A stretch of DNA of 64,000 nucleotides from Schmidtea polychroa (lineage: Eukaryota). Location of the stretch: NCBI GenBank assembly GCA_044892525.1, contig CM097887.1, forward strand, positions 81,880,397-81,944,396, given 5' to 3'. Position numbers and translations under genes: made by a program. Under the pieces are notes generated by a model. The model was not told the origin of the DNA. It did no database searches and saw nothing but the letters and a program-made list of their open reading frames with translations. Shown piece after piece: positions 99-46,097 of the stretch (positions within the stretch are counted from its first letter, which is position 1; every line of letters starts with the position of its first letter).

Positions 99-278
99 AT
101 TTTTTCCTAAATAAATTTTATCACATCAACATAAATCTTGTCTTGTCCGTTTTTGTTTCTAGTATTACAAAAATTCCAACAAAAAATCCTATTGATTGTC
201 CGACTTGTGTATGGGTTGGATTTTGATTTTTTCGGTACAGAATGCCACTTTATAGATTTAAATAGAAACCTCTCAAAT

Positions 279-304
279 ACTAAGCCCCTATAGCTCAGAG
301 GTTA
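279..304 (+). other. Variant tRNA 5' half plus 5-nt leader fused to ORF1 ATG
   Basis: ACTAA-GCCCCTATAGCTCAGAGGTTA aligns without gaps to the array's TGCAA-GCCTTCGTAGCTCAGTGGTTA (8 mismatches) and keeps an A-box-like TAGCTCAGAGG. Confidence 0.85.
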
Positions 305-2581
305 ATGGAAAAACACACAACGATGACGCAATCGCCTACGAATGAATTACTCATCAATCTCAATCAAAAATTACCGAATTTTGGATTACTCAATTGCAAA
401 ATTGCAAAATCTTCAATCATGTCTATGTTGAAATCTCAAATTCAACAATCTCAAGCTATTTTGGACCTGATTTCAAAAGATTCTGAAGAACCTTCAATTC
501 TGGAACCGGTTGAATCAATTAAAGAAATGCCAGAAGATTCTTTGGAATGCTCAAAGGAAAAGATGCCACTCCTTTTAAATTTGCCTTTTCCAATTGAGGA
601 AAGATTTCAGATACTGGAGAAGTCTATCGAATCTATATCTGGTAGGATTGATTTGATTTCTAATTTTCTTAATGTTAATAATGATGACAATAATAAAAAC
701 TTTTTTATTAAAAATTTAAAAGTAAATAATATTTCAAATAAGCATCTTCCTGTAATTTCTAACACTAAACCTGAAATTAATTCAAACTACTCTTCTAAAT
801 TAGTGGATAGTTCCGATAAATTGAAGGCGCCTTTTGTTGATGTTGAAATAGAGAAGTCGAAAACTCTGCATGTGGATTATAAGGGAAGTAATACTGCGTT
901 TAAAGAGGATAATGATATAGATAGATCAACTCGTATTTTGACAAAAAAAGAACGAGCTAATTTTTTGAAGAGCTTTCCAAAGTTTATTAATTTAATCAAA
1001 TTAGGTGAATCAAAATTTAAAGAGAATTTAATTAATTATGAACTTAATTTAATAACTAAATCAAAATTAAACTTTAATATTAATAATTTTGAAAAGTTAT
1101 ATTTTGAAAATGGAAAGTTTTTTATTTCTATTTATAACAAAAATGGAATGAGACCTGAGGTTAGGAATATGAAAGCTTTAATAAAACCTAAAATTATCTC
1201 TAGCAGTGGCCGAATTTTAAATAAAACTTTTATTTCAAGTTTAATTCGTACTGACAACAATTATAGTAAAATCTCTGCTTCTTTAGCAATTATGAAATTT
1301 TTATTTGCATTTTCTGACAAATTAGCTGCAACTGTTTCCATTAAAAATATTAATCAAAAGGGCTCTGTCATTAATAAAGAATTAGATTTACTAAAAAAAG
1401 AAAATAAACTTCCACAATTTTTAATAAATTCAGATATTAAATATCTAAATGGGGAATTTGTAATAAATGACATATTCAGTCCTTCAGAATCTCAAAATGA
1501 AGTTGTGAATCGCAGAGAGTTGTCTAGATCACAATTAAATCAATTATTTAAAAGTCATCCAGAGCTGAAAGAGATGTGTTTTGTTGAAAACTCATCTAAA
1601 TGTGCATCAAAATTGACTAATTTGTTACATAATTTAAAATTAAATAATAACTTTCTTGAGAATATTGAGTTTGATTCAGGAAGGTTTTTCAAATCTAAAG
1701 AAACTGTAAATAATGAATCAATTGGTGCGTCTGACATCATGTTTAACTTGGGACTGCTCAACTTCATTGACATTTCTAAGAAAAATGATGATTTTAAGGA
1801 ACTTCTACTTTCAACTTCTTCTCCTCAAAAGCTGGTTGATTTGATCTTTACGATAAATTATAAAATCTTGACGAAGGACATCAACTACTTGAACAACATT
1901 ACCTATGGAAATTATGTCATGAATTATTTTATAAATATTTTACTTTTACACTCTGTAGCTGATCTTGAAACTTGTGAATCTCTCACAATTGACGACTTTG
2001 ATTATTGGAGCGCTGACATGATAGAAAAAATTCCTTCTTCGTCATATTACTCTCAAAGTTGCAAGGAAAAGTTACTTAAATATAGGCAGTGGAAACTAGA
2101 GGGGGAAGTTGATAAACTAAGAAATATTATTTCGCCTGAGACAATTAATGTTGTTAATAAATTTTTGATTTCATCGGATGACTCTAATAAATCTATTAAG
2201 GAAGCAACTTTGAGTTTAGATGAACAAATGGACAAAATTAATACATTTAAACTAGGCGACAATGACCCAGACATTTTGAAATCTAAGCGGTTACTATACT
2301 TTATTTTGAGAGACAAGAAGTTGTTTCTAAGAAATAACAGCAAAATCTTCCAATTACCTATGACATGCAAAAAAATATGCACTCCAAAAATGTCATTATG
2401 TATTCATGAACTCTTGGACTTTCTTAAGGGGATAGAAAATCATTCATCTCCGATCTTTCCTACAATAGTTGACTCTCCATTGGTTATTGAATCACTTCCA
2501 ACTGATATAGACGCTGAGACGGATACAATAAAATCTCGTACTCGAAATGGTCGAAGAAGAGCGTTATCCGATTCTAAATGA
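305..2581 (+). CDS. Retrotransposon ORF1, 758 aa, unknown function
   Basis: Long ORF intact in three copies; N-terminal coiled-coil-like EERFQILEKSIESISGRIDLI; basic C-tail; no domain recognised. Confidence 0.85.
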   Translation: MEKHTTMTQSPTNELLINLNQKLPNFGLLNCKIAKSSIMSMLKSQIQQSQAILDLISKDSEEPSILEPVESIKEMPEDSLECSKEKMPLLLNLPFPIEERFQILEKSIESISGRIDLISNFLNVNNDDNNKNFFIKNLKVNNISNKHLPVISNTKPEINSNYSSKLVDSSDKLKAPFVDVEIEKSKTLHVDYKGSNTAFKEDNDIDRSTRILTKKERANFLKSFPKFINLIKLGESKFKENLINYELNLITKSKLNFNINNFEKLYFENGKFFISIYNKNGMRPEVRNMKALIKPKIISSSGRILNKTFISSLIRTDNNYSKISASLAIMKFLFAFSDKLAATVSIKNINQKGSVINKELDLLKKENKLPQFLINSDIKYLNGEFVINDIFSPSESQNEVVNRRELSRSQLNQLFKSHPELKEMCFVENSSKCASKLTNLLHNLKLNNNFLENIEFDSGRFFKSKETVNNESIGASDIMFNLGLLNFIDISKKNDDFKELLLSTSSPQKLVDLIFTINYKILTKDINYLNNITYGNYVMNYFINILLLHSVADLETCESLTIDDFDYWSADMIEKIPSSSYYSQSCKEKLLKYRQWKLEGEVDKLRNIISPETINVVNKFLISSDDSNKSIKEATLSLDEQMDKINTFKLGDNDPDILKSKRLLYFILRDKKLFLRNNSKIFQLPMTCKKICTPKMSLCIHELLDFLKGIENHSSPIFPTIVDSPLVIESLPTDIDAETDTIKSRTRNGRRRALSDSK

Positions 2582-5500
2582 AAATGTGTGCCTGCATCAG
2601 TGAAAATATCTGCTCCGTTCTCATATGAAACTGATGCAGAATGCACAAATAAACTTTCTGAAATTGACCGAACACGCTGGTTTACTGATGATGAAATTGA
2701 TTATTTCCTTCTACATCATATCAATAATCCAATGTTTACCTTTATAAGATGTTTCATTGTTAGTATCTTATGTTCTGATATTGCTGAAAATGTTGTTGAT
2801 CTTCCCAAAGCTATTTTTGAAGCTCAAGTAATTCTATGTCCACTCAACATTAACAACTCACATTGGGTCTTGTTTGTTTATTGTAAATCTTCATTAACTT
2901 CTTATTTTATCGATCCGATCTTGAAGAATAGAAATAGATTAGTAAATAAGGAGAGAGCTGTTAAAATAAACAATGTATTAAATTGTACTTTCAATCTTGA
3001 TTCATTAATAATTGAACACCCGTATAAAGATCTTGTTTATCAAGATAATAATTACGATTGTGGTCCTTTCATTTGCGGTTATGCGATGATTGTATCGCAA
3101 GAATGGAGCTCAATTCCTAATACGTTTGTCGAATACATTAGGAAACAATTGTTTCACTGTCAATCTATTTCTACTGTATCAGGAGGTGGCTTATCTAAAA
3201 ATCATTTTCTCAATAAAATCAACTTCAAAAAGGCAATAAAACCTAAAAGCAAACCCATTATGAATGTCAAAATTATAAACCCTAATAATGAGAAAGCTTG
3301 TGTCTCATCTCTGATAAGCAAATGGTACGAAAAATATCCAAGTATATTAGTTCTTTCTCCCGAAATAACAAATAGTTTAATCAGTCAAAATGATAATTTT
3401 ATAATTGAAAATATTACATTTTTGCAATTTAGAAACGTTGATCATATAATTTGTATAATTCCTAACGATAATTGCTGGTGTCTATTGTTTTGCTCAGTCA
3501 AATATGGACATAGTTATCTTTTTGATCTTAAACCTGGTTCGATTACTGAAAGATTGATAGGAATTTGTGAAAATATTACCGATTATTTGAATAAATTTAC
3601 TCTAAATAAAAAGGTTTATTTTGAAAAGAATCAAAATGCTTTTCGTTTAAAAATTTCATCTGAAGATCCGTTTGAATATGCAGTTGGGTACATTGCCTTC
3701 TTAGAAAAATATCTTTTTAATAGAATATTTGATAGAGATTATGTGATTAAAACTCTCAAACATATGAATGTGCAGCAGGCAATTGAAATTAACAAAAATT
3801 TAAATTTAATTAATTGCAAAATTACTGATAAAATTATAACTAATTTTTTTAATAACTTGAAACATTCCTCAGATTTTATTTTACTTAATAATACAATGTG
3901 CACTGCAATTTATGAAGACTGTACTCAATATCTGAAAGATTTTTTAAATATTGAGCATTTGATAAAAGCACAGGTTATTTTTTGTATTATGGCCCCTCCT
4001 AAAGCTCAAGAAATATTGTTTGTCATTGACTATAAAACTGATGAGCATTACTTTCTCAATCCCTCAACTTTAATTACTAATTTTAATTATTTATTTACTA
4101 GTCAAACTTTGTTGCATAAAATCAACGAAATTAGAGAATCGGCCGGTTGTTGTATAAAATCTGGTAATATTCCGCATGATGTTCGTGGTTCTGGCCTTGT
4201 GAGTCGTGTACTCATTTGTGCTTTTATAAAAAACTATATTTCTGATTTATCTTTAGAGAACCTCAATTTATTTGATATAGGCAGTGTAATTACTTCTTTG
4301 TTACCTCCAATAACGGAAACGATCAAGGTTTCGAAAAAAGACTTAAATGTAAAAAAAGAAATTGAAAAACCTTCTTTGGAGCGTCGAATTGAGAAAATTA
4401 ATCTCCTTTTATCAAATTTAGAAAACAGCAACGTTAATGAAATCTGTAAGATAATCATTGACAATTCATTGCGTCAAAGATCAGATGACAAAACTATGAT
4501 TCGTAGACCTTATCTGGGAAATAAACCTTCTTACGACAAACCTGACAAAAATATACTAATATCTGGCTTCCTATCTAATATGAAATTGACAGTGAATAAA
4601 ATACTGGCTGATGAGAAAATTGATGAAAGACCTTCAATAACTGACTACATTTCTAATTTCACTCATTCTGATCCTGTCATTAAATCTTACGATAAAGTGT
4701 TTAATTTCTGTCTGAGTTCTTTGTCAACTCTAGTTCTGAATCTAATTTCCACTGAAGATGTAAAGTTTGAAATTAAAAAAGCAGACAACACTTCTCCTGG
4801 ACTTGATGATATCAAGTATAAAGATTTATCTATTTTTGATCCTGAATACAAATTATTGACATTTTTCTTTAACAAAATAATAGTCGATAAAAATGTTCCA
4901 GAATGTTTAAAATCTTTCAAAACAATTATGATTCCGAAGCCTGATAAAGGTGACAAGTACACTTTAGTTTCTTCATGGCGACCAATAGCTCTATTGTCAG
5001 TCATTTACAAAGTGTTTGCGTCAGTGTTAGCTAGTCGTTTGACCAGTTGGGTGAAGGTCAATAATTTACTACACATTGGTCAGAAAGGAGGCTCAATCCA
5101 CGACGGATGTGTTGAACATAACTCTGTTCTTTCTTCCTGCTTGGAACACTCAAAATACAGTAAAAACACTCCAATTGCTATAGCCTGGCTTGATATTAAA
5201 GACGCCTTTGGCAGTGTCCCTCATGATTACATGTGGAAAATCCTGCGTCGCGTTGGAGTCAGTGAGGAATTCACCAACATCTTGAAGCTGTTATATACCG
5301 ATACAAGTTCTTTCTACACTTGTGGTCCAATTATTACACCAAACATTGCCATTAAACAGGGTGTCAAACAAGGATGCCCTATTTCAATGATTTTGTTTGC
5401 AATTGCGATAAATCCTGTTCTTGAATCTGTTAGTCAATCAAATGTGAAACCTTTCAAAATTGCTGGATCTTCGGTTCAAGTTCTTGCATATGCTGATGAC

Positions 5501-7126
5501 ATTGCACTTGTTGCAAATAATGTTTCCGATTTACAACGCATAATTGACATTGCAGTCGATACTGCTAATGAAATAGGTTTTGAATATCGACCTGAAAAGT
5601 GTGCTTTTCTTGAACTTCCAAATATTAACTCTGAAAGTAAAATCACAATCAATGGAATAAATATTAAGAAACTTTTACCAAACGAATTTTACCAATATCT
5701 GGGAGTTCCAGTCGGTGAGGAAACTGACCAAAGTCCTTACGAGATTTTGAATAAAGTTATTGTTGATGCAAATAAAATTGCAGAATCTGACTTGTTGGGA
5801 TGGCAAAAATTGAAAGCCTACAAAGTCTTTCTACACTCGCGCCTAATCTTTCCATTTAGAACGAGAGAAATAAAGATCAGTGCTCTTTCAACAACACAAG
5901 TTAATTGTACGAGTAAACTGAGAAGTATTCTAAGAAAGATCTTGAATTTGCCCAACCATTCTGAGACCAGTTATCTTTACAACTCCATTGAAAATGGAGG
6001 TGCGTCTTGTATTGATCTTCTTGATGAATATCATACACAGACGATTAGTCATTTTTTCCGACTCTTTACCTCTAATTGCATGTTCACTCGTAATATCAAT
6101 ATTGACTCTTTGAAATTCGTCACTGGTCCTCGACTGGGAATCAAGGAACCATCAATGCAAGAGAGTTTCAACTGGATAAATGGAGCTGAAAATATCAAAA
6201 CTCATTCTGGAAAGAAAACGAGATTCTATCGACCTCGGATAGCAATCAAGTACTTTCAAAGAACTCATGGTATTACCTTGTCTTTTGAAGTCGAGAAAAA
6301 TGAGCCTGTTCTTCGATTTACAACTATCGAACGTGGTACTTGTGTGTTGACAGCTTTGAATCGGAAAGCGATTTCTAAAATCATACATATTGCACTTTAT
6401 GATGCTTATTTTTCTAAATGGAAATTAAGTAGCACGAGTGGATCTTGTGCTTATAGTTTATCACCGAAAATCAATAAAGCGATTTACAATGGCAATCTTC
6501 GTGAAAGTCCTTGGAAATTCATACATCGTGCACGTACAAACACATTGTCTACCTTTGCTAAACCTTATCGAAAACCTGATGATAGACTTTGTAGGCGTTG
6601 TCATATTGAAGAGGAAACACTTTGCCATGTTCTGCAAACATGCAAAATTCACCAAATCCTTGCTCTTAAAAGACATAACGAATGCTTACGACTTATTACT
6701 GAGCAACTGAAAAATCCTTTTCTTATTGTTGTTATTGACCACACTTGTTCACTTGTTGTTGACTCTAAGGAGCGAGTTGATTTAATGATAACGGATAATG
6801 ATAAAAAGAAAATTTTCATGGTAGACGTCAAATGTCCTTTTGACACTCTACAAACCTTTGAAACGGTAGATAAAGGAAATTTGACAAAATACGATAATCT
6901 TCGACAGCAAATACAAGTTGCAAAGCCAAATTTTAAGGTGGAACTTTATACTTGTATCATTGGCTCATTAGGTTCTGTTCCACCAATGACATATGATGTG
7001 CTTGAGAAGATTGGAGTACCTAATCATAAAGTTGAATCTCTTGTAAGAGAATGTGCAATGAGCAATATAATGCACTCGGCTAAATCTTGGCATTACCATG
7101 CATATGGTATCTTACCAGGCTTCTAA
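2582..7126 (+). CDS. Retrotransposon ORF2: Ulp1/SENP-like cysteine protease, reverse transcriptase, CCHC finger, restriction-like endonuclease
   Basis: Numbering from GTG 2588: WFTDDEIDYF, H92 (NSHW), D109, Q152, C158 (QDNNYDCG); RT motifs SPGLDD, WRPIAL, LDIKDAFGSV, GVKQGCPIS, YADD (5489-5500), YLGV; CX2CX8HX4C at 6590-6643; RH, RVD, DVKCP, KY endonuclease motifs. Frame is open from 2582; first ATG is 2732. Confidence 0.95.
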   Translation, partial: KCVPASVKISAPFSYETDAECTNKLSEIDRTRWFTDDEIDYFLLHHINNPMFTFIRCFIVSILCSDIAENVVDLPKAIFEAQVILCPLNINNSHWVLFVYCKSSLTSYFIDPILKNRNRLVNKERAVKINNVLNCTFNLDSLIIEHPYKDLVYQDNNYDCGPFICGYAMIVSQEWSSIPNTFVEYIRKQLFHCQSISTVSGGGLSKNHFLNKINFKKAIKPKSKPIMNVKIINPNNEKACVSSLISKWYEKYPSILVLSPEITNSLISQNDNFIIENITFLQFRNVDHIICIIPNDNCWCLLFCSVKYGHSYLFDLKPGSITERLIGICENITDYLNKFTLNKKVYFEKNQNAFRLKISSEDPFEYAVGYIAFLEKYLFNRIFDRDYVIKTLKHMNVQQAIEINKNLNLINCKITDKIITNFFNNLKHSSDFILLNNTMCTAIYEDCTQYLKDFLNIEHLIKAQVIFCIMAPPKAQEILFVIDYKTDEHYFLNPSTLITNFNYLFTSQTLLHKINEIRESAGCCIKSGNIPHDVRGSGLVSRVLICAFIKNYISDLSLENLNLFDIGSVITSLLPPITETIKVSKKDLNVKKEIEKPSLERRIEKINLLLSNLENSNVNEICKIIIDNSLRQRSDDKTMIRRPYLGNKPSYDKPDKNILISGFLSNMKLTVNKILADEKIDERPSITDYISNFTHSDPVIKSYDKVFNFCLSSLSTLVLNLISTEDVKFEIKKADNTSPGLDDIKYKDLSIFDPEYKLLTFFFNKIIVDKNVPECLKSFKTIMIPKPDKGDKYTLVSSWRPIALLSVIYKVFASVLASRLTSWVKVNNLLHIGQKGGSIHDGCVEHNSVLSSCLEHSKYSKNTPIAIAWLDIKDAFGSVPHDYMWKILRRVGVSEEFTNILKLLYTDTSSFYTCGPIITPNIAIKQGVKQGCPISMILFAIAINPVLESVSQSNVKPFKIAGSSVQVLAYADDIALVANNVSDLQRIIDIAVDTANEIGFEYRPEKCAFLELPNINSESKITINGINIKKLLPNEFYQYLGVPVGEETDQSPYEILNKVIVDANKIAESDLLGWQKLKAYKVFLHSRLIFPFRTREIKISALSTTQVNCTSKLRSILRKILNLPNHSETSYLYNSIENGGASCIDLLDEYHTQTISHFFRLFTSNCMFTRNINIDSLKFVTGPRLGIKEPSMQESFNWINGAENIKTHSGKKTRFYRPRIAIKYFQRTHGITLSFEVEKNEPVLRFTTIERGTCVLTALNRKAISKIIHIALYDAYFSKWKLSSTSGSCAYSLSPKINKAIYNGNLRESPWKFIHRARTNTLSTFAKPYRKPDDRLCRRCHIEEETLCHVLQTCKIHQILALKRHNECLRLITEQLKNPFLIVVIDHTCSLVVDSKERVDLMITDNDKKKIFMVDVKCPFDTLQTFETVDKGNLTKYDNLRQQIQVAKPNFKVELYTCIIGSLGSVPPMTYDVLEKIGVPNHKVESLVRECAMSNIMHSAKSWHYHAYGILPGF
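2587..2647 (+). promoter_or_regulatory. Predicted RNA hairpin just 3' of the ORF1 UGA (candidate readthrough stimulator)
   Basis: CTGCATCAGT 2592-2601 pairs perfectly with ACTGATGCAG 2630-2639; extended by TGTGC 2587-2591/GCACA 2643-2647 across a 3-nt bulge. Same in copies 2 and 3. Confidence 0.65.
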
Positions 7127-7635
7127 TTATTAAAAATCGATTGAAAATAATTAATTTTGTTTCTCATATTAATTAAAAAAAAAAAAAAACTGTCATCATT
7201 ATTTATTTAAAGCATTATGAGGAATTGAATATCATTTTAATCTTGCCACTTATTAGTTTTGATAACCTAAACATAATAATAATCTTTTCAATTCATCATG
7301 AAGAGGTGGTCTGTTCTAATTTCAGATTCGATAATGATGAAAAAATTCAGCTGAAACAAGAAATCTTTGCAGAAACCTAGAATGGCGCTTAATTAATTTG
7401 GCTCTAAAACTTCTGCAAGTGTTAAGCTAAGCCGGAAACGAATCTCCGATGAAATCCAATATGCCTGAGAAATTTCAAGAAACAAAGTGCTTTCGAGACG
7501 AGTATTCTCCCAACCGATATAATTATCATAGAGATTTTGATCACCCAAGTGCCGACATTTCTTGAATGGCTGTTCCAAGTTGAACGTTCTCAACAGATAA
7601 AAATCCAAAAACTTGTTATATTAATAAAATTTTAT
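7127..7635 (+). other. Structured 3' UTR of the retrotransposon
   Basis: Internal A15 (7175-7189); inverted repeats 7292-7299/7334-7341, 7366-7374/7411-7419, 7474-7482/7558-7566; terminal stem-loop 7564-7589; AATAAA just before the junction. Confidence 0.75.
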
Positions 7636-7677
7636 CTAGTAAACCAGGGGTCGTGAGTTCAATTCTCACCGAAGGCA
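7636..7677 (+). pseudogene. 3' half of interrupted tRNA-Thr(AGT)
   Basis: nt 32-73 of the tRNA directly after the element end. Confidence 0.95.
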
Positions 7678-7862
7678 ATTTTTTCCTAAATAAATTTTAT
7701 CACATCAACATTAATCTTGTCTTGTCCGTTTTTGTTTCTCGTATTAGAAAAATTCCAACAAAAAATCCTATTGTTTGTCCGACTTGTGTATGGGTTGGAT
7801 TTTGATTTTTTCGGTACAGAATGCCACTTTATAGATTTAAATAGAAATCTCTCAAATTGCAA

Positions 7863-7935
7863 GCCTTCGTAGCTCAGTGGTTAGAGCACTGGTCTAGTAA
7901 ACCAGGGGTCGTGAGTTCAATTCTCACCGAAGGCA
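7863..7935 (+). tRNA. trnT: tRNA-Thr(AGT)
   Basis: Cloverleaf: GCCTTCG/CGAAGGC acceptor, GCTC/GAGC D-stem, CTGGT-CTAGTAA-ACCAG anticodon arm, GTGAG-TTCAATT-CTCAC T-arm, discriminator A. Confidence 0.95.
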
Positions 7936-7936
7936 A

Positions 7937-7942
7937 TTTTTT
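7937..7942 (+). terminator. Pol III terminator (T6), repeated after each tRNA of the 258-bp array
   Basis: TTTTTT begins 2 nt after the discriminator base. Confidence 0.8.
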
Positions 7943-8120
7943 CCTAAATAAATTTTATCACATCAACATTAATCTTGTCTTGTCCGTTTTTGTTTCTAGT
8001 ATTAGAAAAATTCCAACAAAAAATCCTATTGTTTGTCCGACTTGTGTATGGGTTGGATTTTGATTTTTTCGGTACAGAATGCCACTTTATAGATTTAAAT
8101 AGAAATCTCTCAAATTGCAA

Positions 8121-8193
8121 GCCTTAGTAGCTCAGTGGTTAGAGCACTGGTCTAGTAAACCAGGGGTCGTGAGTTCAATTCTCACCGAAGGCA
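8121..8193 (+). tRNA. trnT: tRNA-Thr(AGT), acceptor-stem variant (A6:G67 mismatch)
   Basis: As above but begins GCCTTAG. Confidence 0.85.
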
Positions 8194-8378
8194 ATTTTTT
8201 CCTAAATAAATTTTATCACATCAACATTAATCTTGTCTTGTCCGTTTTTGTTTCTAGTATTAGAAAAATTCCAACAAAAAATCCTATTGATTGTCCGACT
8301 TGTGTATGGGTTGGATTTTGAATTTTTCGGTACAGAATGCCACTTTATAGATTTAAATAGAAATCTCTCAAATTGCAA

Positions 8379-8451
8379 GCCTTCGTAGCTCAGTGGTTAG
8401 AGCACTGGTCTAGTAAACCAGGGGTCGTGAGTTCAATTCTCACCGAAGGCA
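8379..8451 (+). tRNA. trnT: tRNA-Thr(AGT)
   Basis: Perfect cloverleaf identical to 7863-7935. Confidence 0.95.
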
Positions 8452-8636
8452 ATTTTTTCCTAAATAAATTTTATCACATCAACATAAATCTTGTCTTGTC
8501 CGTTTTTGTTTCTAGTATTACAAAAATTCCAACAAAAAATCCTATTGATTGTCCGACTTGTGTATGGGTTGGATTTTGATTTTTTCGGTACAGAATGCCA
8601 CTTTATAGATTTAAATAGAAATCTCTCAAATTGCAA

Positions 8637-8657
8637 GCCTTCGTAGCTCAGTGGTTA
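8637..8657 (+). pseudogene. 5' part (nt 1-21) of interrupted tRNA-Thr(AGT), array-type sequence
   Basis: GCCTTCGTAGCTCAGTGGTTA followed directly by the ATG of ORF1. Confidence 0.93.
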
Positions 8658-10934
8658 ATGGAAAAACACACAACGATGATGCAATCGCCTACGAATGAAT
8701 TACTCATCAATCTCAATCAAAAATTACCGAATTTTGGATTACTCAATTGCAAAATTGCAAAATCTTCAATCATGTCTATGTTGAAATCTCAAATTCAACA
8801 ATCTCAAGCTATTTTGGACCTGATTTCAAAAGATTCTGAAGAACCTTCAATTCTGGAACCGGTTGAATCAATTAAAGAAATGCCAGAAGATTCTTTGGAA
8901 TGCTCAAAGGAAAAGATGCCACTCCTTTTAAATTTGCCTTTTCCAATTGAGGAAAGATTTCAGATACTGGAGAAGTCTATCGAATCTATATCTGGTAGGA
9001 TTGATTTGATTTCTAATTTTCTTAATGTTAATAATGATGACAATAATAAAAACTTTTTTATTAAAAATTTAAAAGTAAATAATATTTCAAATAAGCATCT
9101 TCCTGTAATTTCTAACACTAAACCTGAAATTAATTCAAACTACTCTTCTAAATTAGTGGATAGTTCCGATAAATTGAAGGCGCCTTTTGTTGATGTTGAA
9201 ATAGAGAAGTCGAAAACTCTGCATGTGGATTATAAGGGAAGTAATACTGCGTTTAAAGAGGATAATGATATAGATAGATCAACTCGTATTTTGACAAAAA
9301 AAGAACGAGCTAATTTTTTGAAGAGCTTTCCAAAGTTTATTAATTTAATCAAATTAGGTGAATCAAAATTTAAAGAGAATTTAATTAATTATGAACTTAA
9401 TTTAATAACTAAATCAAAATTAAACTTTAATATTAATAATTTTGAAAAGTTATATTTTGAAAATGGAAAGTTTTTTATTTCTATTTATAACAAAAATGGA
9501 ATGAGACCTGAGGTTAGGAATATGAAAGCTTTAATAAAACCTAAAATTATCTCTAGCAGTGGCCGAATTTTAAATAAAACTTTTATTTCAAGTTTAATTC
9601 GTACTGACAACAATTATAGTAAAATCTCTGCTTCTTTAGCAATTAAGAAATTTTTATTTGCATTTTCTGACAAATTAGCTGCAACTGTTTCCATTAAAAA
9701 TATTAATCAAAAGGGCTCTGTCATTAATAAAGAATTAGATTTACTAAAAAAAGAAAATAAACTTCCACAATTTTTAATAAATTCAGATATTAAATATCTA
9801 AATGGGGAATTTGTAATAAATGACATATTCAGTCCTTCAGAATCTCAAAATGAAGTTGTGAATCGCAGAGAGTTGTCTAGATCACAATTAAATCAATTAT
9901 TTAAAAGTCATCCAGAGCTGAAAGAGATGTGTTTTGTTGAAAACTCATCTAAATGTGCATCAAAATTGACTAATTTGTTACATAATTTAAAATTAAATAA
10001 TAACTTTCTTGAGAATATTGAGTTTGATTCAGGAAGGTTTTTCAAATCTAAAGAAACTGTAAATAATGAATCAATTGGTGCGTCTGACATCATGTTTAAC
10101 TTGGGACTGCTCAACTTCATTGACATTTCTAAGAAAAATGATGATTTTAAGGAACTTCTACTTTCAACTTCTTCTCCTCAAAAGCTGGTTGATTTGATCT
10201 TTACGATAAATTATAAAATCTTGACGAAGGACATCAACTACTTGAACAATATTACCTATGGAAATTATGTCATGAATTATTTTATAAATATTTTACTTTT
10301 ACACTCTGTAGCTGATCTTGAAACTTGTGAATCTCTCACAATTGACGACTTTGATTATTGGAGCGCTGACATGATAGAAAAAATTCCTTCTTCGTCATAT
10401 TACTCTCAAAGTTGCAAGGAAAAGTTACTTAAATATAGGCAGTGGAAACTAGAGGGGGAAGTTGATAAACTAAGAAATATTATTTCGCCTGAGACAATTA
10501 ATGTTGTTAATAAATTTTTGATTTCATCGGATGACTCTAATAAATCTATTAAGGAAGCAACTTTGAGTTTAGATGAACAAATGGACAAAATTAATACATT
10601 TAAACTAGGCGACAATGACCCAGACATTTTGAAATCTAAGCGGTTACTATACTTTATTTTGAGAGACAAGAAGTTGTTTCTAAGAAATAACAGCAAAATC
10701 TTCCAATTACCTATGACATGCAAAAAAATATGCACTCCAAAAATGTCATTATGTATTCATGAACTCTTGGACTTTCTTAAGGGGATAGAAAATCATTCAT
10801 CTCCGATCTTTCCTACAATAGTTGACTCTCCATTGGTTATTGAATCACTTCCAACTGATATAGACGCTGAGACGGATACAATAAAATCTCGTACTCGAAA
10901 TGGTCGAAGAAGAGCGTTATCCGATTCTAAATGA
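8658..10934 (+). CDS. ORF1, copy 2 (758 aa)
   Basis: ATG at 8658 matches copies 1 and 3; two amino-acid differences from copy 1. Confidence 0.85.
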   Translation: MEKHTTMMQSPTNELLINLNQKLPNFGLLNCKIAKSSIMSMLKSQIQQSQAILDLISKDSEEPSILEPVESIKEMPEDSLECSKEKMPLLLNLPFPIEERFQILEKSIESISGRIDLISNFLNVNNDDNNKNFFIKNLKVNNISNKHLPVISNTKPEINSNYSSKLVDSSDKLKAPFVDVEIEKSKTLHVDYKGSNTAFKEDNDIDRSTRILTKKERANFLKSFPKFINLIKLGESKFKENLINYELNLITKSKLNFNINNFEKLYFENGKFFISIYNKNGMRPEVRNMKALIKPKIISSSGRILNKTFISSLIRTDNNYSKISASLAIKKFLFAFSDKLAATVSIKNINQKGSVINKELDLLKKENKLPQFLINSDIKYLNGEFVINDIFSPSESQNEVVNRRELSRSQLNQLFKSHPELKEMCFVENSSKCASKLTNLLHNLKLNNNFLENIEFDSGRFFKSKETVNNESIGASDIMFNLGLLNFIDISKKNDDFKELLLSTSSPQKLVDLIFTINYKILTKDINYLNNITYGNYVMNYFINILLLHSVADLETCESLTIDDFDYWSADMIEKIPSSSYYSQSCKEKLLKYRQWKLEGEVDKLRNIISPETINVVNKFLISSDDSNKSIKEATLSLDEQMDKINTFKLGDNDPDILKSKRLLYFILRDKKLFLRNNSKIFQLPMTCKKICTPKMSLCIHELLDFLKGIENHSSPIFPTIVDSPLVIESLPTDIDAETDTIKSRTRNGRRRALSDSK

Positions 10935-13900
10935 AAATGTGTGCCTGCATCAGTGAAAATATCTGCTCCGTTCTCATATGAAACTGATGCAGAATGCACA
11001 AATAAACTTTCTGAAATTGACCGAACACGCTGGTTTACTGATGATGAAATTGATTATTTCCTTCTACATCATATCAATAATCCAATGTTTACCTTTATAA
11101 GATGTTTCATTGTTAGTATCTTATGTTCTGATATTGCTGAAAATGTTGTTGATCTTCCCAAAGCTATTTTTGAAGCTCAAGTAATTCTATGTCCACTCAA
11201 CATTAACAACTCACATTGGGTCTTGTTTGTTTATTGTAAATCTTCATTAACTTCTTATTTTATCGATCCGATCTTGAAGAATAGAAATAGATTAGTAAAT
11301 AAGGAGAGAGCTGTTAAAATAAACAATGTATTAAATTGTACTTTCAATCTTGATTCATTAATAATTGAACACCCGTATAAAGATCTTGTTTATCAAGATA
11401 ATAATTACGATTGTGGTCCTTTCATTTGCGGTTATGCGATGATTGTATCGCAAGAATGGAGCTCAATTCCTAATACGTTTGTCGAATACATTAGGAAACA
11501 ATTGTTTCACTGTCAATCTATTTCTACTGTATCAGGAGGTGGCTTATCTAAAAATCATTTTCTCAATAAAATCAACTTCAAAAAGGCAATAAAACCTAAA
11601 AGCAAACCCATTATGAATGTCAAAATTATAAACCCTAATAATGAGAAAGCTTGTGTCTCATCTCTGATAAGCAAATGGTACGAAAAATATCCAAGTATAT
11701 TAGTTCTTTCTCCCGAAATAACAAATAGTTTAATCAGTCAAAATGATAATTTTATAATTGAAAATATTACATTTTTGCAATTTAGAAACGTTGATCATAT
11801 AATTTGTATAATTCCTAACGATAATTGCTGGTGTCTATTGTTTTGCTCAGTCAAATATGGACATAGTTATCTTTTTGATCTTAAACCTGGTTCGATTACT
11901 GAAAGATTGATAGGAATTTGTGAAAATATTACCGATTATTTGAATAAATTTACTCTAAATAAAAAGGTTTATTTTGAAAAGAATCAAAATGCTTTTCGTT
12001 TAAAAATTTCATCTGAAGATCCGTTTGAATATGCAGTTGGGTACATTGCCTTCTTAGAAAAATATCTTTTTAATAGAATATTTGATAGAGATTATGTGAT
12101 TAAAACTCTCAAACATATGAATGTGCAGCAGGCAATTGAAATTAACAAAAATTTAAATTTAATTAATTGCAAAATTACTGATAAAATTATAACTAATTTT
12201 TTTAATAACTTGAAACATTCCTCAGATTTTATTTTACTTAATAATACAATGTGCACTGCAATTTATGAAGACTGTACTCAATATCTGAAAGATTTTTTAA
12301 ATATTGAGTATTTGATAAAAGCACAGGTTATTTTTTGTATTATGGCCCCTCCTAAAGCTCAAGAAATATTGTTTGTCATTGACTATAAAACTGATGAGCA
12401 TTACTTTCTCAATCCCTCAACTTTAATTACTAATTTTAATTATTTATTTACTAGTCAAACTTTGTTGCATAAAATCAACGAAATTAGAGAATCGGCCGGT
12501 TGTTGTATAAAATCTGGTAATATTCCGCATGATGTTCGTGGTTCTGGCCTTGTGAGTCGTGTACTCATTTGTGCTTTTATAAAAAACTATATTTCTGATT
12601 TATCTTTAGAGAACCTCAATTTATTTGATATAGGCAGTGTAATTACTTCTTTGTTACCTCCAATAACGGAAACGATCAAGGTTTCGAAAAAAGACTTAAA
12701 TGTAAAAAAAGAAATTGAAAAACCTTCTTTGGAGCGTCGAATTGAGAAAATTAATCTCCTTTTATCAAATTTAGAAAACAGCAACGTTAATGAAATCTGT
12801 AAGATAATCATTGACAATTCATTGCGTCAAAGATCAGATGACAAAACTATGATTCGTAGACCTTATCTGGGAAATAAACCTTCTTACGACAAACCTGACA
12901 AAAATATACTAATATCTGGCTTCCTATCTAATATGAAATTGACAGTGAATAAAATACTGGCTGATGAGAAAATTGATGAAAGACCTTCAATAACTGACTA
13001 CATTTCTAATTTCACTCATTCTGATCCTGTCATTAAATCTTACGATAAAGTGTTTAATTTCTGTCTGAGTTCTTTGTCAACTCTAGTTCTGAATCTAATT
13101 TCCACTGAAGATGTAAAGTTTGAAATTAAAAAAGCAGACAACACTTCTCCTGGACTTGATGATATCAAGTATAAAGATTTATCTATTTTTGATCCTGAAT
13201 ACAAATTATTGACATTTTTCTTTAACAAAATAATAGTCGATAAAAATGTTCCAGAATGTTTAAAATCTTTCAAAACAATTATGATTCCGAAGCCTGATAA
13301 AGGTGACAAGTACACTTTAGTTTCTTCATGGCGACCAATAGCTCTATTGTCAGTCATTTACAAAGTGTTTGCGTCAGTGTTAGCTAGTCGTTTGACCAGT
13401 TGGGTGAAGGTCAATAATTTACTACACATTGGTCAGAAAGGAGGCTCAATCCACGACGGATGTGTTGAACATAACTCTGTTCTTTCTTCCTGCTTGGAAC
13501 ACTCAAAATACAGTAAAAACACTCCAATTGCTATAGCCTGGCTTGATATTAAAGACGCCTTTGGCAGTGTCCCTCATGATTACATGTGGAAAATCCTGCG
13601 TCGCGTTGGAGTCAGTGAGGAATTCACCAACATCTTGAAGCTGTTATATACCGATACAAGTTCTTTCTACACTTGTGGTCCAATTATTACACCAAACATT
13701 GCCATTAAACAGGGTGTCAAACAAGGATGCCCTATTTCAATGATTTTGTTTGCAATTGCGATAAATCCTGTTCTTGAATCTGTTAGTCAATCAAATGTGA
13801 AACCTTTCAAAATTGCTGGATCTTCGGTTCAAGTTCTTGCATATGCTGATGACATTGCACTTGTTGCAAATAATGTTTCCGATTTACAACGCATAATTGA

Positions 13901-15479
13901 CATTGCAGTCGATACTGCTAATGAAATAGGTTTTGAATATCGACCTGAAAAGTGTGCTTTTCTTGAACTTCCAAATATTAACTCTGAAAGTAAAATCACA
14001 ATCAATGGAATAAATATTAAGAAACTTTTACCAAACGAATTTTACCAATATCTGGGAGTTCCAGTCGGTGAGGAAACTGACCAAAGTCCTTACGAGATTT
14101 TGAATAAAGTTATTGTTGATGCAAATAAAATTGCAGAATCTGACTTGTTGGGATGGCAAAAATTGAAAGCCTACAAAGTCTTTCTACACTCGCGCCTAAT
14201 CTTTCCATTTAGAACGAGAGAAATAAAGATCAGTGCTCTTTCAACAACACAAGTTAATTGTACGAGTAAACTGAGAAGTATTCTAAGAAAGATCTTGAAT
14301 TTGCCCAACCATTCTGAGACCAGTTATCTTTACAACTCCATTGAAAATGGAGGTGCGTCTTGTATTGATCTTCTTGATGAATATCATACACAGACGATTA
14401 GTCATTTTTTCCGACTCTTTACCTCTAATTGCATGTTCACTCGTAATATCAATATTGACTCTTTGAAATTCGTCACTGGTCCTCGACTGGGAATCAAGGA
14501 ACCATCAATGCAAGAGAGTTTCAACTGGATAAATGGAGCTGAAAATATCAAAACTCATTCTGGAAAGAAAACGAGATTCTATCGACCTCGGATAGCAATC
14601 AAGTACTTTCAAAGAACTCATGGTATTACCTTGTCTTTTGAAGTCGAGAAAAATGAGCCTGTTCTTCGATTTACAACTATCGAACGTGGTACTTGTGTGT
14701 TGACAGCTTTGAATCGGAAAGCGATTTCTAAAATCATACATATTGCACTTTATGATGCTTATTTTTCTAAATGGAAATTAAGTAGCACGAGTGGATCTTG
14801 TGCTTATAGTTTATCACCGAAAATCAATAAAGCGATTTACAATGGCAATCTTCGTGAAAGTCCTTGGAAATTCATACATCGTGCACGTACAAACACATTG
14901 TCTACCTTTGCTAAACCTTATCGAAAACCTGATGATAGACTTTGTAGGCGTTGTCATATTGAAGAGGAAACACTTTGCCATGTTCTGCAAACATGCAAAA
15001 TTCACCAAATCCTTGCTCTTAAAAGACATAACGAATGCTTACGACTTATTACTGAGCAACTGAAAAATCCTTTTCTTATTGTTGTTATTGACCACACTTG
15101 TTCACTTGTTGTTGACTCTAAGGAGCGAGTTGATTTAATGATAACGGATAATGATAAAAAGAAAATTTTCATGGTAGACGTCAAATGTCCTTTTGACACT
15201 CTACAGACCTTTGAAACGGTAGATAAAGGAAATTTGACAAAATACGATAATCTTCGACAGCAAATACAAGTTGCAAAGCCAAATTTTAAGGTGGAACTTT
15301 ATACTTGTATCATTGGCTCATTAGGTTCTGTTCCACCAATGACATATGATGTGCTTGAGAAGATTGGAGTACCTAATCATAAAGTTGAATCTCTTGTAAG
15401 AGAATGTGCAATGAGCAATATAATGCACTCGGCTAAATCTTGGCATTACCATGCATATGGTATCTTACCAGGCTTCTAA
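10935..15479 (+). CDS. ORF2, copy 2 (protease-RT-RLE), intact
   Basis: Same motifs as copy 1, one H>Y change; in frame with ORF1 after TGA 10932-10934. Confidence 0.95.
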   Translation, partial: KCVPASVKISAPFSYETDAECTNKLSEIDRTRWFTDDEIDYFLLHHINNPMFTFIRCFIVSILCSDIAENVVDLPKAIFEAQVILCPLNINNSHWVLFVYCKSSLTSYFIDPILKNRNRLVNKERAVKINNVLNCTFNLDSLIIEHPYKDLVYQDNNYDCGPFICGYAMIVSQEWSSIPNTFVEYIRKQLFHCQSISTVSGGGLSKNHFLNKINFKKAIKPKSKPIMNVKIINPNNEKACVSSLISKWYEKYPSILVLSPEITNSLISQNDNFIIENITFLQFRNVDHIICIIPNDNCWCLLFCSVKYGHSYLFDLKPGSITERLIGICENITDYLNKFTLNKKVYFEKNQNAFRLKISSEDPFEYAVGYIAFLEKYLFNRIFDRDYVIKTLKHMNVQQAIEINKNLNLINCKITDKIITNFFNNLKHSSDFILLNNTMCTAIYEDCTQYLKDFLNIEYLIKAQVIFCIMAPPKAQEILFVIDYKTDEHYFLNPSTLITNFNYLFTSQTLLHKINEIRESAGCCIKSGNIPHDVRGSGLVSRVLICAFIKNYISDLSLENLNLFDIGSVITSLLPPITETIKVSKKDLNVKKEIEKPSLERRIEKINLLLSNLENSNVNEICKIIIDNSLRQRSDDKTMIRRPYLGNKPSYDKPDKNILISGFLSNMKLTVNKILADEKIDERPSITDYISNFTHSDPVIKSYDKVFNFCLSSLSTLVLNLISTEDVKFEIKKADNTSPGLDDIKYKDLSIFDPEYKLLTFFFNKIIVDKNVPECLKSFKTIMIPKPDKGDKYTLVSSWRPIALLSVIYKVFASVLASRLTSWVKVNNLLHIGQKGGSIHDGCVEHNSVLSSCLEHSKYSKNTPIAIAWLDIKDAFGSVPHDYMWKILRRVGVSEEFTNILKLLYTDTSSFYTCGPIITPNIAIKQGVKQGCPISMILFAIAINPVLESVSQSNVKPFKIAGSSVQVLAYADDIALVANNVSDLQRIIDIAVDTANEIGFEYRPEKCAFLELPNINSESKITINGINIKKLLPNEFYQYLGVPVGEETDQSPYEILNKVIVDANKIAESDLLGWQKLKAYKVFLHSRLIFPFRTREIKISALSTTQVNCTSKLRSILRKILNLPNHSETSYLYNSIENGGASCIDLLDEYHTQTISHFFRLFTSNCMFTRNINIDSLKFVTGPRLGIKEPSMQESFNWINGAENIKTHSGKKTRFYRPRIAIKYFQRTHGITLSFEVEKNEPVLRFTTIERGTCVLTALNRKAISKIIHIALYDAYFSKWKLSSTSGSCAYSLSPKINKAIYNGNLRESPWKFIHRARTNTLSTFAKPYRKPDDRLCRRCHIEEETLCHVLQTCKIHQILALKRHNECLRLITEQLKNPFLIVVIDHTCSLVVDSKERVDLMITDNDKKKIFMVDVKCPFDTLQTFETVDKGNLTKYDNLRQQIQVAKPNFKVELYTCIIGSLGSVPPMTYDVLEKIGVPNHKVESLVRECAMSNIMHSAKSWHYHAYGILPGF

Positions 15480-16168: not shown

Positions 16169-16194
16169 ACTAAGCCCCTATAGCTCAGAGGTTA
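16169..16194 (+). other. Variant tRNA 5' half plus leader fused to ORF1 ATG
   Basis: Identical to 279-304. Confidence 0.85.
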
Positions 16195-18471
16195 ATGGAA
16201 AAACACACAACGATGACGCAATCGCCTACGAATGAATTACTCATCAATCTCAATCAAAAATTACCGAATTTTGGATTACTCAATTGCAAAATTGCAAAAT
16301 CTTCAATCATGTCTATGTTGAAATCTCAAATTCAACAATCTCAAGCTATTTTGGACCTGATTTCAAAAGATTCTGAAGAACCTTCAATTCTGGAACCGGT
16401 TGAATCAATTAAAGAAATGCCAGAAGATTCTTTGGAATGCTCAAAGGAAAAGATGCCACTCCTTTTAAATTTGCCTTTTCCAATTGAGGAAAGATTTCAG
16501 ATACTGGAGAAGTCTATCGAATCTATATCTGGTAGGATTGATTTGATTTCTAATTTTCTTAATGTTAATAATGATGACAATAATAAAAACTTTTTTATTA
16601 AAAATTTAAAAGTAAATAATATTTCAAATAAGCATCTTCCTGTAATTTCTAACACTAAACCTGAAATTAATTCAAACTACTCTTCTAAATTAGTGGATAG
16701 TTCCGATAAATTGAAGGCGCCTTTTGTTGATGTTGAAATAGAGAAGTCGAAAACTCTGCATGTGGATTATAAGGGAAGTAATACTGCGTTTAAAGAGGAT
16801 AATGATATAGATAGATCAACTCGTATTTTGACAAAAAAAGAACGAGCTAATTTTTTGAAGAGCTTTCCAAAGTTTATTAATTTAATCAAATTAGGTGAAT
16901 CAAAATTTAAAGAGAATTTAATTAATTATGAACTTAATTTAATAACTAAATCAAAATTAAACTTTAATATTAATAATTTTGAAAAGTTATATTTTGAAAA
17001 TGGAAAGTTTTTTATTTCTATTTATAACAAAAATGGAATGAGACCTGAGGTTAGGAATATGAAAGCTTTAATAAAACCTAAAATTATCTCTAGCAGTGGC
17101 CGAATTTTAAATAAAACTTTTATTTCAAGTTTAATTCGTACTGACAACAATTATAGTAAAATCTCTGCTTCTTTAGCAATTAAGAAATTTTTATTTGCAT
17201 TTTCTGACAAATTAGCTGCAACTGTTTCCATTAAAAATATTAATCAAAAGGGCTCTGTCATTAATAAAGAATTAGATTTACTAAAAAAAGAAAATAAACT
17301 TCCACAATTTTTAATAAATTCAGATATTAAATATCTAAATGGGGAATTTGTAATAAATGACATATTCAGTCCTTCAGAATCTCAAAATGAAGTTGTGAAT
17401 CGCAGAGAGTTGTCTAGATCACAATTAAATCAATTATTTAAAAGTCATCCAGAGCTGAAAGAGATGTGTTTTGTTGAAAACTCATCTAAATGTGCATCAA
17501 AATTGACTAATTTGTTACATAATTTAAAATTAAATAATAACTTTCTTGAGAATATTGAGTTTGATTCAGGAAGGTTTTTCAAATCTAAAGAAACTGTAAA
17601 TAATGAATCAATTGGTGCGTCTGACATCATGTTTAACTTGGGACTGCTCAACTTCATTGACATTTCTAAGAAAAATGATGATTTTAAGGAACTTCTACTT
17701 TCAACTTCTTCTCCTCAAAAGCTGGTTGATTTGATCTTTACGATAAATTATAAAATCTTGACGAAGGACATCAACTACTTGAACAACATTACCTATGGAA
17801 ATTATGTCATGAATTATTTTATAAATATTTTACTTTTACACTCTGTAGCTGATCTTGAAACTTGTGAATCTCTCACAATTGACGACTTTGATTATTGGAG
17901 CGCTGACATGATAGAAAAAATTCCTTCTTCGTCATATTACTCTCAAAGTTGCAAGGAAAAGTTACTTAAATATAGGCAGTGGAAACTAGAGGGGGAAGTT
18001 GATAAACTAAGAAATATTATTTCGCCTGAGACAATTAATGTTGTTAATAAATTTTTGATTTCATCGGATGACTCTAATAAATCTATTAAGGAAGCAACTT
18101 TGAGTTTAGATGAACAAATGGACAAAATTAATACATTTAAACTAGGCGACAATGACCCAGACATTTTGAAATCTAAGCGGTTACTATACTTTATTTTGAG
18201 AGACAAGAAGTTGTTTCTAAGAAATAACAGCAAAATCTTCCAATTACCTATGACATGCAAAAAAATATGCACTCCAAAAATGTCATTATGTATTCATGAA
18301 CTCTTGGACTTTCTTAAGGGGATAGAAAATCATTCATCTCCGATCTTTCCTACAATAGTTGACTCTCCATTGGTTATTGAATCACTTCCAACTGATATAG
18401 ACGCTGAGACGGATACAATAAAATCTCGTACTCGAAATGGTCGAAGAAGAGCGTTATCCGATTCTAAATGA
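16195..18471 (+). CDS. ORF1, copy 3 (758 aa)
   Basis: Intact ORF matching copies 1 and 2. Confidence 0.85.
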   Translation: MEKHTTMTQSPTNELLINLNQKLPNFGLLNCKIAKSSIMSMLKSQIQQSQAILDLISKDSEEPSILEPVESIKEMPEDSLECSKEKMPLLLNLPFPIEERFQILEKSIESISGRIDLISNFLNVNNDDNNKNFFIKNLKVNNISNKHLPVISNTKPEINSNYSSKLVDSSDKLKAPFVDVEIEKSKTLHVDYKGSNTAFKEDNDIDRSTRILTKKERANFLKSFPKFINLIKLGESKFKENLINYELNLITKSKLNFNINNFEKLYFENGKFFISIYNKNGMRPEVRNMKALIKPKIISSSGRILNKTFISSLIRTDNNYSKISASLAIKKFLFAFSDKLAATVSIKNINQKGSVINKELDLLKKENKLPQFLINSDIKYLNGEFVINDIFSPSESQNEVVNRRELSRSQLNQLFKSHPELKEMCFVENSSKCASKLTNLLHNLKLNNNFLENIEFDSGRFFKSKETVNNESIGASDIMFNLGLLNFIDISKKNDDFKELLLSTSSPQKLVDLIFTINYKILTKDINYLNNITYGNYVMNYFINILLLHSVADLETCESLTIDDFDYWSADMIEKIPSSSYYSQSCKEKLLKYRQWKLEGEVDKLRNIISPETINVVNKFLISSDDSNKSIKEATLSLDEQMDKINTFKLGDNDPDILKSKRLLYFILRDKKLFLRNNSKIFQLPMTCKKICTPKMSLCIHELLDFLKGIENHSSPIFPTIVDSPLVIESLPTDIDAETDTIKSRTRNGRRRALSDSK

Positions 18472-24217: not shown

Positions 24218-24243
24218 ACTAAGCCCCTATAGCTCAGAGGTTA
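24218..24243 (+). other. Variant tRNA 5' half plus leader fused to an ORF1 fragment
   Basis: Identical to 279-304. Confidence 0.85.
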
Positions 24244-45725: not shown

Positions 45726-46097
45726 AAAATGGCAAAATAAAAAAAATCCAAAAGTGGCTGGGCTGATGACGATTGTGATGCCACAATCAAGTCACGTAGG
45801 TACCTTTAAAAGTGCGATACCTTCATAAATGTGCGTTCAAAATTTTTTTTAATGTGTATTTATTTATTTTTTTATACAAAAAAACGGTTACTTTTAAGAT
45901 TTTTTTTTAGTTTTAACACAAAAGACGGTTACAACTTGTGTAAGTATAATAATTATAAATGCTGGCACGCATAATTAGCATTATTATTTAATTAATTAAT
46001 TCGCCATTTAAATCGAGTGTTTAAATAATACCAGATTTAGGCAATAATTTGTATTTGTATTTTAATTTAATAAATATTTAAAAAATAATCATTAATT

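Follow-up and report, generated by a model that had tools for sequence, protein, structure and literature searches.

We report that the two open reading frames (ORFs) of a tRNA-targeted retrotransposon of Schmidtea polychroa form one frame split by a single TGA, and we propose that this stop is passed by programmed readthrough. The element was found in a stretch of 64,000 nucleotides (assembly GCA_044892525.1, contig CM097887.1, positions 81,880,397 to 81,944,396 of the forward strand), called the window hereafter, which starts with three tandem copies of this 7.3-kb non-LTR retrotransposon (LTR, long terminal repeat) inside a tRNA-Thr(AGT) array. Readthrough of the UGA would yield a 2273-aa fusion of ORF1, protease, reverse transcriptase (RT) and endonuclease, and would be stimulated in the window lineage by a stem predicted just behind the stop. 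We consider this reading of the sequences probable, at roughly 0.78. What is established is the layout, a constraint acting on the identity of the stop, on the frame and on both stem arms, and the coding of one protein domain across the stop in a sister clade. A first-pass annotation of the same DNA had already described the single split frame, with its coordinates and the length of the fusion, and these were confirmed; its interpretation as readthrough is likewise supported by the comparisons given here, covariation of the stem excepted.

Organization of the element

The first copy of the element and the junctions of the two others comprise the following features (positions within the window).

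285..304, + strand: 5' half of a tRNA-Thr-like gene; it abuts the ORF1 ATG, and no 5' untranslated region (UTR) of the element's own is visible
305..2578, + strand: ORF1, 758 aa, from ATG 305; identity of 32-44% to the ORF1 of related families; its C-terminal end is an acidic linker and a basic patch
2579..2581, + strand: single in-frame TGA, likely readthrough codon
2582..7126, + strand: ORF2, 1514 aa, same frame as ORF1; first ATG at codon 51 (2732)
2582..2586, + strand: spacer, 5 nt; the stem starts at the sixth base after the stop
2587..2601, + strand: 5' arm of the predicted stem, codons +2 to +7; TGTGC (2587-2591) and CTGCATCAGT (2592-2601), with a GTG at 2588-2590
2602..2629, + strand: loop
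2630..2647, + strand: 3' arm of the predicted stem; ACTGATGCAG (2630-2639), a 3-nt bulge (2640-2642) and GCACA (2643-2647)
2678..3148, + strand: Ulp1-like (peptidase C48) domain, beginning at the Trp of WFTDDEI
3185..3193, + strand: Gly-Gly-Gly, just 3' of the protease domain
4931..5707, + strand: reverse transcriptase domain PF00078 (E 1.1e-29)
6590..7126, + strand: putative CCHC zinc knuckle and restriction-like endonuclease (RLE) region, motifs visible in the translation
7127..7635, + strand: 3' UTR, joining the 3' half of tRNA-Thr at the anticodon loop
10932..10934, + strand: TGA of copy 2 (ORF1 ATG 8658, ORF2 10935-15479)
18469..18471, + strand: TGA of copy 3 (ORF1 ATG 16195; ORF2 frameshifted near its end, 1361 aa)

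The same stop is present in all three copies, as previously noted, and the third adds the late ORF2 frameshift. Since the copies are near-identical (the 200 bases around the junction do not differ), they provide no independent evidence, which is supplied by divergent families. The Pfam scan assigned no family to ORF1; in ORF2 it returned PF02902 (E 1.9e-09) and no APE family. The protease also matches yeast Ulp1 (E 0.00019), the His, Asp, Gln and Cys columns being aligned. The Gly-Gly-Gly behind it is a candidate self-cleavage site, and a GG at this place is kept in 8/8 near relatives examined. Two decayed Ulp1-like repeats seem to trail the intact protease at about 3450-4150 of ORF2 (weak profile matches, best E ~2e-4). 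An AlphaFold model of ORF2 residues 1-198 had a predicted local distance difference test score (pLDDT) of 42 and was not used. The C-terminal motifs of ORF2 we take to be a CCHC knuckle and an RLE, the latter without a Pfam match. No Rfam match to a selenocysteine insertion sequence (SECIS), a hammerhead or a hepatitis delta virus (HDV)-like ribozyme was found in window positions 250-8700. The four element 3' ends in the window all join tRNA-Thr at one and the same anticodon-loop base. With an RT, C-terminal RLE motifs, an Ulp1-like protease and a fixed tRNA site, the element is a NeSL/R5/LIN-related RLE non-LTR retrotransposon, a placement made by features, as the profile searches returned no named LIN, R5 or NeSL sequence and the trees hold unnamed rows only.

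At the junction, the first in-frame ATG of ORF2 (2732) lies 3' of the Trp codon (2678) of WFTDDEIDYF, which aligns with the yeast Ulp1 motif, so that a start there would truncate the protease, as the first-pass annotation had pointed out. The two ATGs near the stop are out of frame, also as claimed; the 16-aa product ascribed to both holds for 2578, whereas that from 2584 has 14 aa. Similarly, the pairing proposed for the hairpin (TGTGC with GCACA plus ten base pairs, 15 bp in total) stands, and its start had to be corrected from 6 nt after the stop to a 5-nt spacer. The predicted fold of the 141-nt junction region is of modest stability (z -1.93; 6/200 dinucleotide shuffles as good), and over bases +4 to +78 a fold as good was obtained in 1/200 synonymous recodings and in 1/144 other ORF2 windows.

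Conservation of the junction in the window clade

The host genome contains many families of the clade to which the window element belongs (the window clade), in arrays of many tRNA types. Recombinants aside, they are 52-80% identical in ORF2; in ORF1 the figure is 30-53%. Families at only 52-62% ORF2 identity still have the stop, the frame and both stem arms. Frame and stop thus proved conserved in the alignment of related families that the first-pass annotation had called for. The TGA is kept in 30/30 loci of one genome locus set, frame and TGA together in 19/20 loci of another and in 11/12 near-lineage loci. The two exceptions are L062, which has an internal deletion, and L098, with CGA at the stop and a broken ORF2. 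Genome-wide, the stem pattern gave 547 exact matches against 0 for a reversed control, and in 545 of the 547 a TGA stands six bases 5' of the GTG of the stem. Across 17 representative elements, ORF1 always ends in TGA, while the ORF2 stops of the same elements are TAA (12), TGA (4) and TAG (1).

Some candidates for a natural fusion were rejected. L062 is a single copy whose deletion removes the stop, the stem and the WFTDD motif, and the long apparently fused frames of L063 and L064 are chimeras with two protease domains that retain the TGA. Module swaps near the junction were seen in L063, L064, L061, L084 and L089, which have two protease domains, or an ORF1 end, protease and RT of different origin. 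Broken or partial loci (L091, L099, L202, L203, L204, L207, L208 and L209) stand outside the junction counts.

In the 16 aligned junctions, the first codon after the stop is always AAA, AGA or AGG. The loop differs in sequence among families and is constant in length, no gap being found in 16/16, and the 100 stem-pattern matches listed are all 52 nt long; the flank behind the stem has indels. A codon alignment of eight families, one of them found through the stem pattern, was scanned for synonymous identity. The top 5 of 1298 six-codon windows fall on the two arms, with values of 0.90-0.96 against a background mean of 0.48 and maximum of 0.89. Degenerate columns with an invariant amino acid are codon-invariant in 6/8 cases within the arms and in 26/461 elsewhere; for four- and six-fold columns with an invariant residue the figures are 5/6 and 3/225. 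Loop and flanks have diverged, so the frozen arms are not accounted for by a recent conversion of the entire block. In 8/8 near families the predicted stem beats synonymous recodings (0-4 of 200 as stable). The junction combines a single conserved in-frame stop, coding sequence on both sides and a predicted 3' stem with twin peaks of synonymous conservation, features expected of structure-stimulated readthrough.

A sister clade with the stop in the protease Trp codon

A Pfam search for further protease domains in the genome led to a sister clade whose RT is only 32-38% identical to that of the window element. Its intact elements again have ORF1, TGA and ORF2 in one frame:

L205: ORF1 498 aa, ORF2 1137 aa; tRNA-Lys array
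L191: ORF1 1260 aa, ORF2 1078 aa; 28S rDNA
L206: ORF1 1279 aa, ORF2 1252 aa; 28S rDNA
L193-L195: ORF1 1143-1231 aa, ORF2 1100 aa

In L205, L191, L193, L198 and L094b the TGA occupies the column of the protease Trp. L205, read with X in place of the stop, aligns to yeast Ulp1 (1euv_A) on both sides, X standing opposite the motif Trp (E 1.1e-10). Over 60 sister loci this column holds TGA in 48 and TCA in 3 (2 places) and is not spanned in 9; TGG was found in 0/51 spanned loci. The block of zinc finger, linker and protease is in one frame in L206 and is cut by the TGA in L191, L094b and L205. Since one protein domain is coded on either side of the stop, a fusion is needed to make it, and reinitiation cannot build such a domain. 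G-to-A damage as the source of the sister TGA was ruled out, because multi-copy, otherwise open elements all have it; isolated additional Trp-to-TGA changes are seen in L092 and L096.

L206 and L095, which have Arg and Leu at the Trp column, carry the stop farther upstream, in the contexts UGA-CAA-CCA and UGA-CGG, respectively, each with a predicted stem better than 200/200 recodings. UGA-CUA was found in related lineages, and all three appear as readthrough contexts in the cited part of the literature (PMC3159437). No local stem was detected within 78 nt of the stop in L205, L191, L193, L094b and the soil locus L211 (see below).

An LIGG motif precedes the zinc finger and protease in L205, where it lies in ORF1 at a distance of 110 codons from the stop, and in L095, at codon 31 of ORF2; it is absent from L191, L193, L198 and L211. 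The motif resembles the C-terminus of SUMO or ubiquitin, and in L205 and L095 it is a possible cleavage site. A further locus, L201, has an L191-type element adjoining a long TTAGGG telomere array.

Relatives beyond this genome

Eight loci were found in soil metagenomes, of which six (L211-L216) were examined, L217 and L218 being too short. An in-frame TGA stands before ORF2 in five of the six (L211, L212, L213, L215 and L216), the next codons being CAA, TGG, TGG, CGA and CGG; L215 and L216 have further breaks. The sixth, L214, has a single open frame and is placed by the tree outside the group. In a profile search of 1.84 billion proteins, most close relatives begin at or inside the protease, as would be expected behind a stop. 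A search for longer ORF1 relatives, a weak one, found none among 7997 candidates, and an ORF2 N-terminal search gave two relatives, neither of them fused.

Three long single frames lie within the same 41-row FastTree group, and the Trp is present in two of them, P0063 and P0067; P0063 (2421 aa) has the linker, the basic patch and WFTD with no stop. A sense codon at this site in relatives had been named in the first-pass annotation as a finding that would speak against readthrough. It was indeed found, in these two distant proteins, but we take it as an argument in favour, since it shows a fused protein to be a natural form. The stop is thus not universal in the group, and, judging from these frames, the fused form does occur in nature.

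Evaluation of the readthrough reading and its alternatives

Several points weigh against readthrough. The proposal is drawn from sequence throughout. Stem covariation in related families, which the first-pass annotation had looked for, did not appear: the 12-bp core shows no double changes and two one-sided G-U changes over the 16 junctions, and the shuffle control was not exceeded. In P0001, the peptide gives a hint of one compensatory change. The case for pairing of the predicted stem is its perfect complementarity together with the freezing of third positions, with no contribution from covariation, and, the core being invariant, a sequence-specific role or a peptide constraint may add to pairing. 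Besides, the stem pattern itself served to find 6 of the 16 aligned junctions, and, since the families are related and swap modules, the counts are not independent. The lack of a UGA-C context, noted earlier for the window element, extends to its clade, where 16/16 junctions have UGA-A and a spacer of 5-6 nt instead of UGA-C and about 7-9 nt; in the cited passages viral stimulators typically have a spacer of at least 8 nt (PMC3159437, PMC13517186). Taken by itself, the +4 C of lineages with the stop at the Trp site is weak evidence, because 54-76% of their Leu codons begin with C. The strongest argument, the domain across the stop, comes from the sister clade, whose link to the window clade is moderately supported (86/91; Shimodaira-Hasegawa-like approximate likelihood ratio test 96 in a quick tree; midpoint root only). 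Tca2 of Candida albicans also has ORFs split by one UGA with a predicted 3' structure, but it is an LTR element, and its flanking sequences failed to bring about readthrough in a yeast reporter according to the part of the report cited (PMC2194720). Finally, the GTG at codon +3 is invariant, at a fixed distance from the stop, in 16/16 junctions, and four related proteins (P0001, P0002, P0054 and P0060) have an initial M at its position or close to it.

These last two observations favour the most serious alternative, which we nevertheless regard as unlikely. Ribosomes would terminate at the UGA and reinitiate two codons later at the invariant GUG, or close by without an AUG, while the stem keeps them in place, and a separate ORF2 protein would be made with an intact protease, as the GUG sits 5' of the protease Trp and the fold would be complete. 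Such restarts have precedents in bicistronic long interspersed element (LINE) RNAs: in the sections consulted of PMC5972666, SART1 requires a structure 3' of its stop-start, and in LINE-1 reinitiation takes an unconventional form. However, SART1 and LINE-1 restart at the ORF2 AUG (PMC5972666), whereas the window element has its ORFs in one frame and no conserved in-frame AUG. Across the 16 junctions no in-frame ATG was found near the stop and no nearby ATG is common to all; an AUGA overlap exists in 12/16, always outside the ORF2 frame. The GUG is paired inside the predicted stem and has a pyrimidine at -3 and a C at +4 in 16/16, which is a poor start context. As for the four proteins, their M may be a called GTG, since gene callers use non-ATG starts (P0048 begins at TTG). 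Reinitiation also leaves unexplained both the constant UGA and the protease domain across the stop in the sister clade.

Removal of the stop in RNA, by A-to-I editing of UGA to a Trp codon or by a splice joining ORF1 to ORF2, seems to us very improbable. Editing would supply exactly the Trp needed in the sister clade, and the stem adjoins the stop, although the stop itself is outside the stem. Contigs of run X1, which we guess to be RNA, contain four short joints with CT..AC ends, so that splicing of element RNA may occur, although in the antisense direction. RNA that had been edited or spliced should nevertheless return to the genome as copies, yet TGA is present in 545/547 copies and TGG in none of the 51 spanned sister loci. 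The deletion of L062, the sole fused copy, has AA..GT ends with an 18-nt filler and is not an intron. Among the matches listed (40 rows, from contigs, which drop rare variants) a sense-strand GT..AG joint spanning the stop is absent, as is any change at 2579-2581. The four runs compared with the element gave contigs, which carry no information on expression level, and X7 gave no match. As a separate observation, the X1 contigs skip 48-69 nt at 2684-2740, 2919-2989, 3194-3243 and 5628-5679; the CT..AC ends would be those of GT-AG introns if antisense.

Just as improbable is a separate start for ORF2, from an internal promoter, entry resembling that at an internal ribosome entry site or a downstream AUG, with the stem serving RNA packaging or recombination between families. 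A minor promoter in the gag-pol junction is described for Tca2 in the part of PMC2194720 cited, chimeric elements do change partners near the junction, and the arms are invariant in sequence, like a protein-binding site. Against this, the first Met of ORF2 lies at codon 26-359 across the representative elements, which would cut the protease in most families, and a separate start leaves the kept frame, the UGA and the readthrough contexts of other lineages unexplained. That the UGA is selenocysteine or a host sense codon can practically be dismissed: a stem 6 nt behind a UGA is known from SEPN1, as the passages cited state (PMC3159437), but Rfam gave no SECIS match for the window element or for six other loci, these ORF2s contain 13-21 TGG codons and in 4/17 cases end in TGA, and the stop site is a linker or the Trp column.

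Comparison with known systems

Among described elements, LIN15_SM and LIN25_SM are planarian LINEs related to NeSL that target tRNA genes, LIN families targeting both tRNA and 28S genes (PMC4640811); relatives of the window element also insert in other tRNA arrays and in 28S rDNA. As described there, both share with the window family an RT and a C-terminal restriction-like endonuclease, insertion in arrayed tRNA genes and a similar AT-rich 3' end. LIN15_SM joins tRNA genes at the D-arm, as L061, L068 and L069 do, whereas the window family and L066/L067/L073 do so at the anticodon loop. The cited passages of PMC4640811 mention neither two ORFs nor an in-frame stop for these elements. In the descriptions available to us, NeSL-1 and Utopia-1_TSP have an Ulp1-like cysteine protease 5' of the RT, as in the window element, and Utopia families as a rule code for a single protein, whereas here a UGA divides the frame just before or inside the protease. 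R5 reportedly has two ORFs.

A close parallel is the gag-pol of murine leukemia virus (MuLV), where a single in-frame stop separates a structural ORF from protease-RT, lies at the beginning of the protease and is followed by an RNA structure on its 3' side. In the Moloney virus (MoMLV) the readthrough codon is the fifth residue of the protease; in the sister clade it is the motif Trp. The viral system, demonstrated by experiment in a retrovirus, has a UAG, an 8-nt spacer, a pseudoknot and an aspartic protease (cited parts of PMC13517186 and PMC5009743), whereas the non-LTR element of the window, known from sequence, has a UGA, a 5-6 nt spacer, a simple predicted stem and a cysteine protease. 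Alphaviruses, Virgaviridae and coltiviruses share with it a UGA and a stem marked by twin peaks of synonymous conservation. Their stems and that of Drosophila kelch start 7-9 nt after the stop, several with compensatory changes, whereas that of the window element is closer and has none. For kelch, stem-aided readthrough without +4 C has been proposed in the passages cited (PMC3159437); the UGA-C context is therefore common, not universal.

Other features of the window

Intact tRNA-Thr(AGT) genes lie at 7863, 8121 and 8379. At 285-304, 8638-8657, 16175-16194 and 24224-24243, ORF1 starts directly after a tRNA 5' half, which in 3/4 copies departs from the local tRNA-Thr(AGT) and looks like the tRNA-Thr(TGT/CGT) genes of L077. 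This suggests a 5' flank brought from an earlier site and transcription from the array. Two tRNA target sites are used among the families, the start of the anticodon loop (window, L066, L067 and L073) and the D-arm (L061, L068, L069, L070, L074 and L075). From about 24000 to 45500 extends a 1915-bp satellite of about 11 near-identical units, each made of a decayed element 3' end, a tRNA fragment and the 5' part of ORF1. Two other frames were observed:

46089-47441, + strand: FLYWCH zinc finger with a weak match to a Mutator-like element (MULE) transposase
58951-59679, - strand: 242-aa frame with a match to the viral fusion glycoprotein family PF24664 (E 1.9e-25), probably an endogenous fragment

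Discussion

According to the mechanism we propose, most ribosomes would terminate at the UGA and release abundant ORF1 protein, while a small share would pause at the stem and decode the UGA by a near-cognate tRNA, giving the fusion. The residue inserted would be Trp, Arg or Cys, the usual ones in UGA readthrough. The low frequency of the fusion would set a low ratio of RT to ORF1 protein, and the Ulp1-like protease, encoded just 3' of the stop, would probably process the polyprotein in the way of the MuLV protease. Within the group the stop seems to have shifted position: in some lineages it occupies the protease Trp codon, with UGA-C and mostly no stem, and in others, the window lineage among them, it lies farther upstream with a stem; the window lineage lacks +4 C.

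It is tempting to go further, and we lean towards the idea that a branch of site-specific LINEs, in flatworm-like hosts and soil eukaryotes, independently reached the gammaretroviral strategy, a Gag-Pol-like UGA-readthrough polyprotein cut by its own Ulp1-like protease. The stop would have moved several times, UGA-C contexts and RNA stems being swapped, and in one clade the readthrough residue would be the protease Trp itself, so that only the fusion is active.

Readthrough with a 3' stem and elements of this kind are each known. We found their combination reported nowhere, and no report of readthrough in a non-LTR element, in the literature searched, which included passages of recoding reviews; descriptions of R5 and NeSL-1 and Repbase were outside that search, and the point may have been mentioned briefly before. 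The signals seen across the group form a natural series that one reporter system could compare: a stem lacking +4 C, UGA-CUA with no stem, a stem behind either UGA-CGG or UGA-CAA-CCA, and complete fusion. There are also consequences for annotation, as gene callers give an ORF2 truncated inside the protease, and for genome-writing tools derived from site-specific retrotransposons, in which the working protein may be the fusion.

In summary, how LINEs make their second protein has long been a puzzle, with reinitiation, frameshifting and 2A skipping as the answers so far. If our reading is true, the retroviral solution would join these in the LINE class, with a fused and probably self-processed protein.

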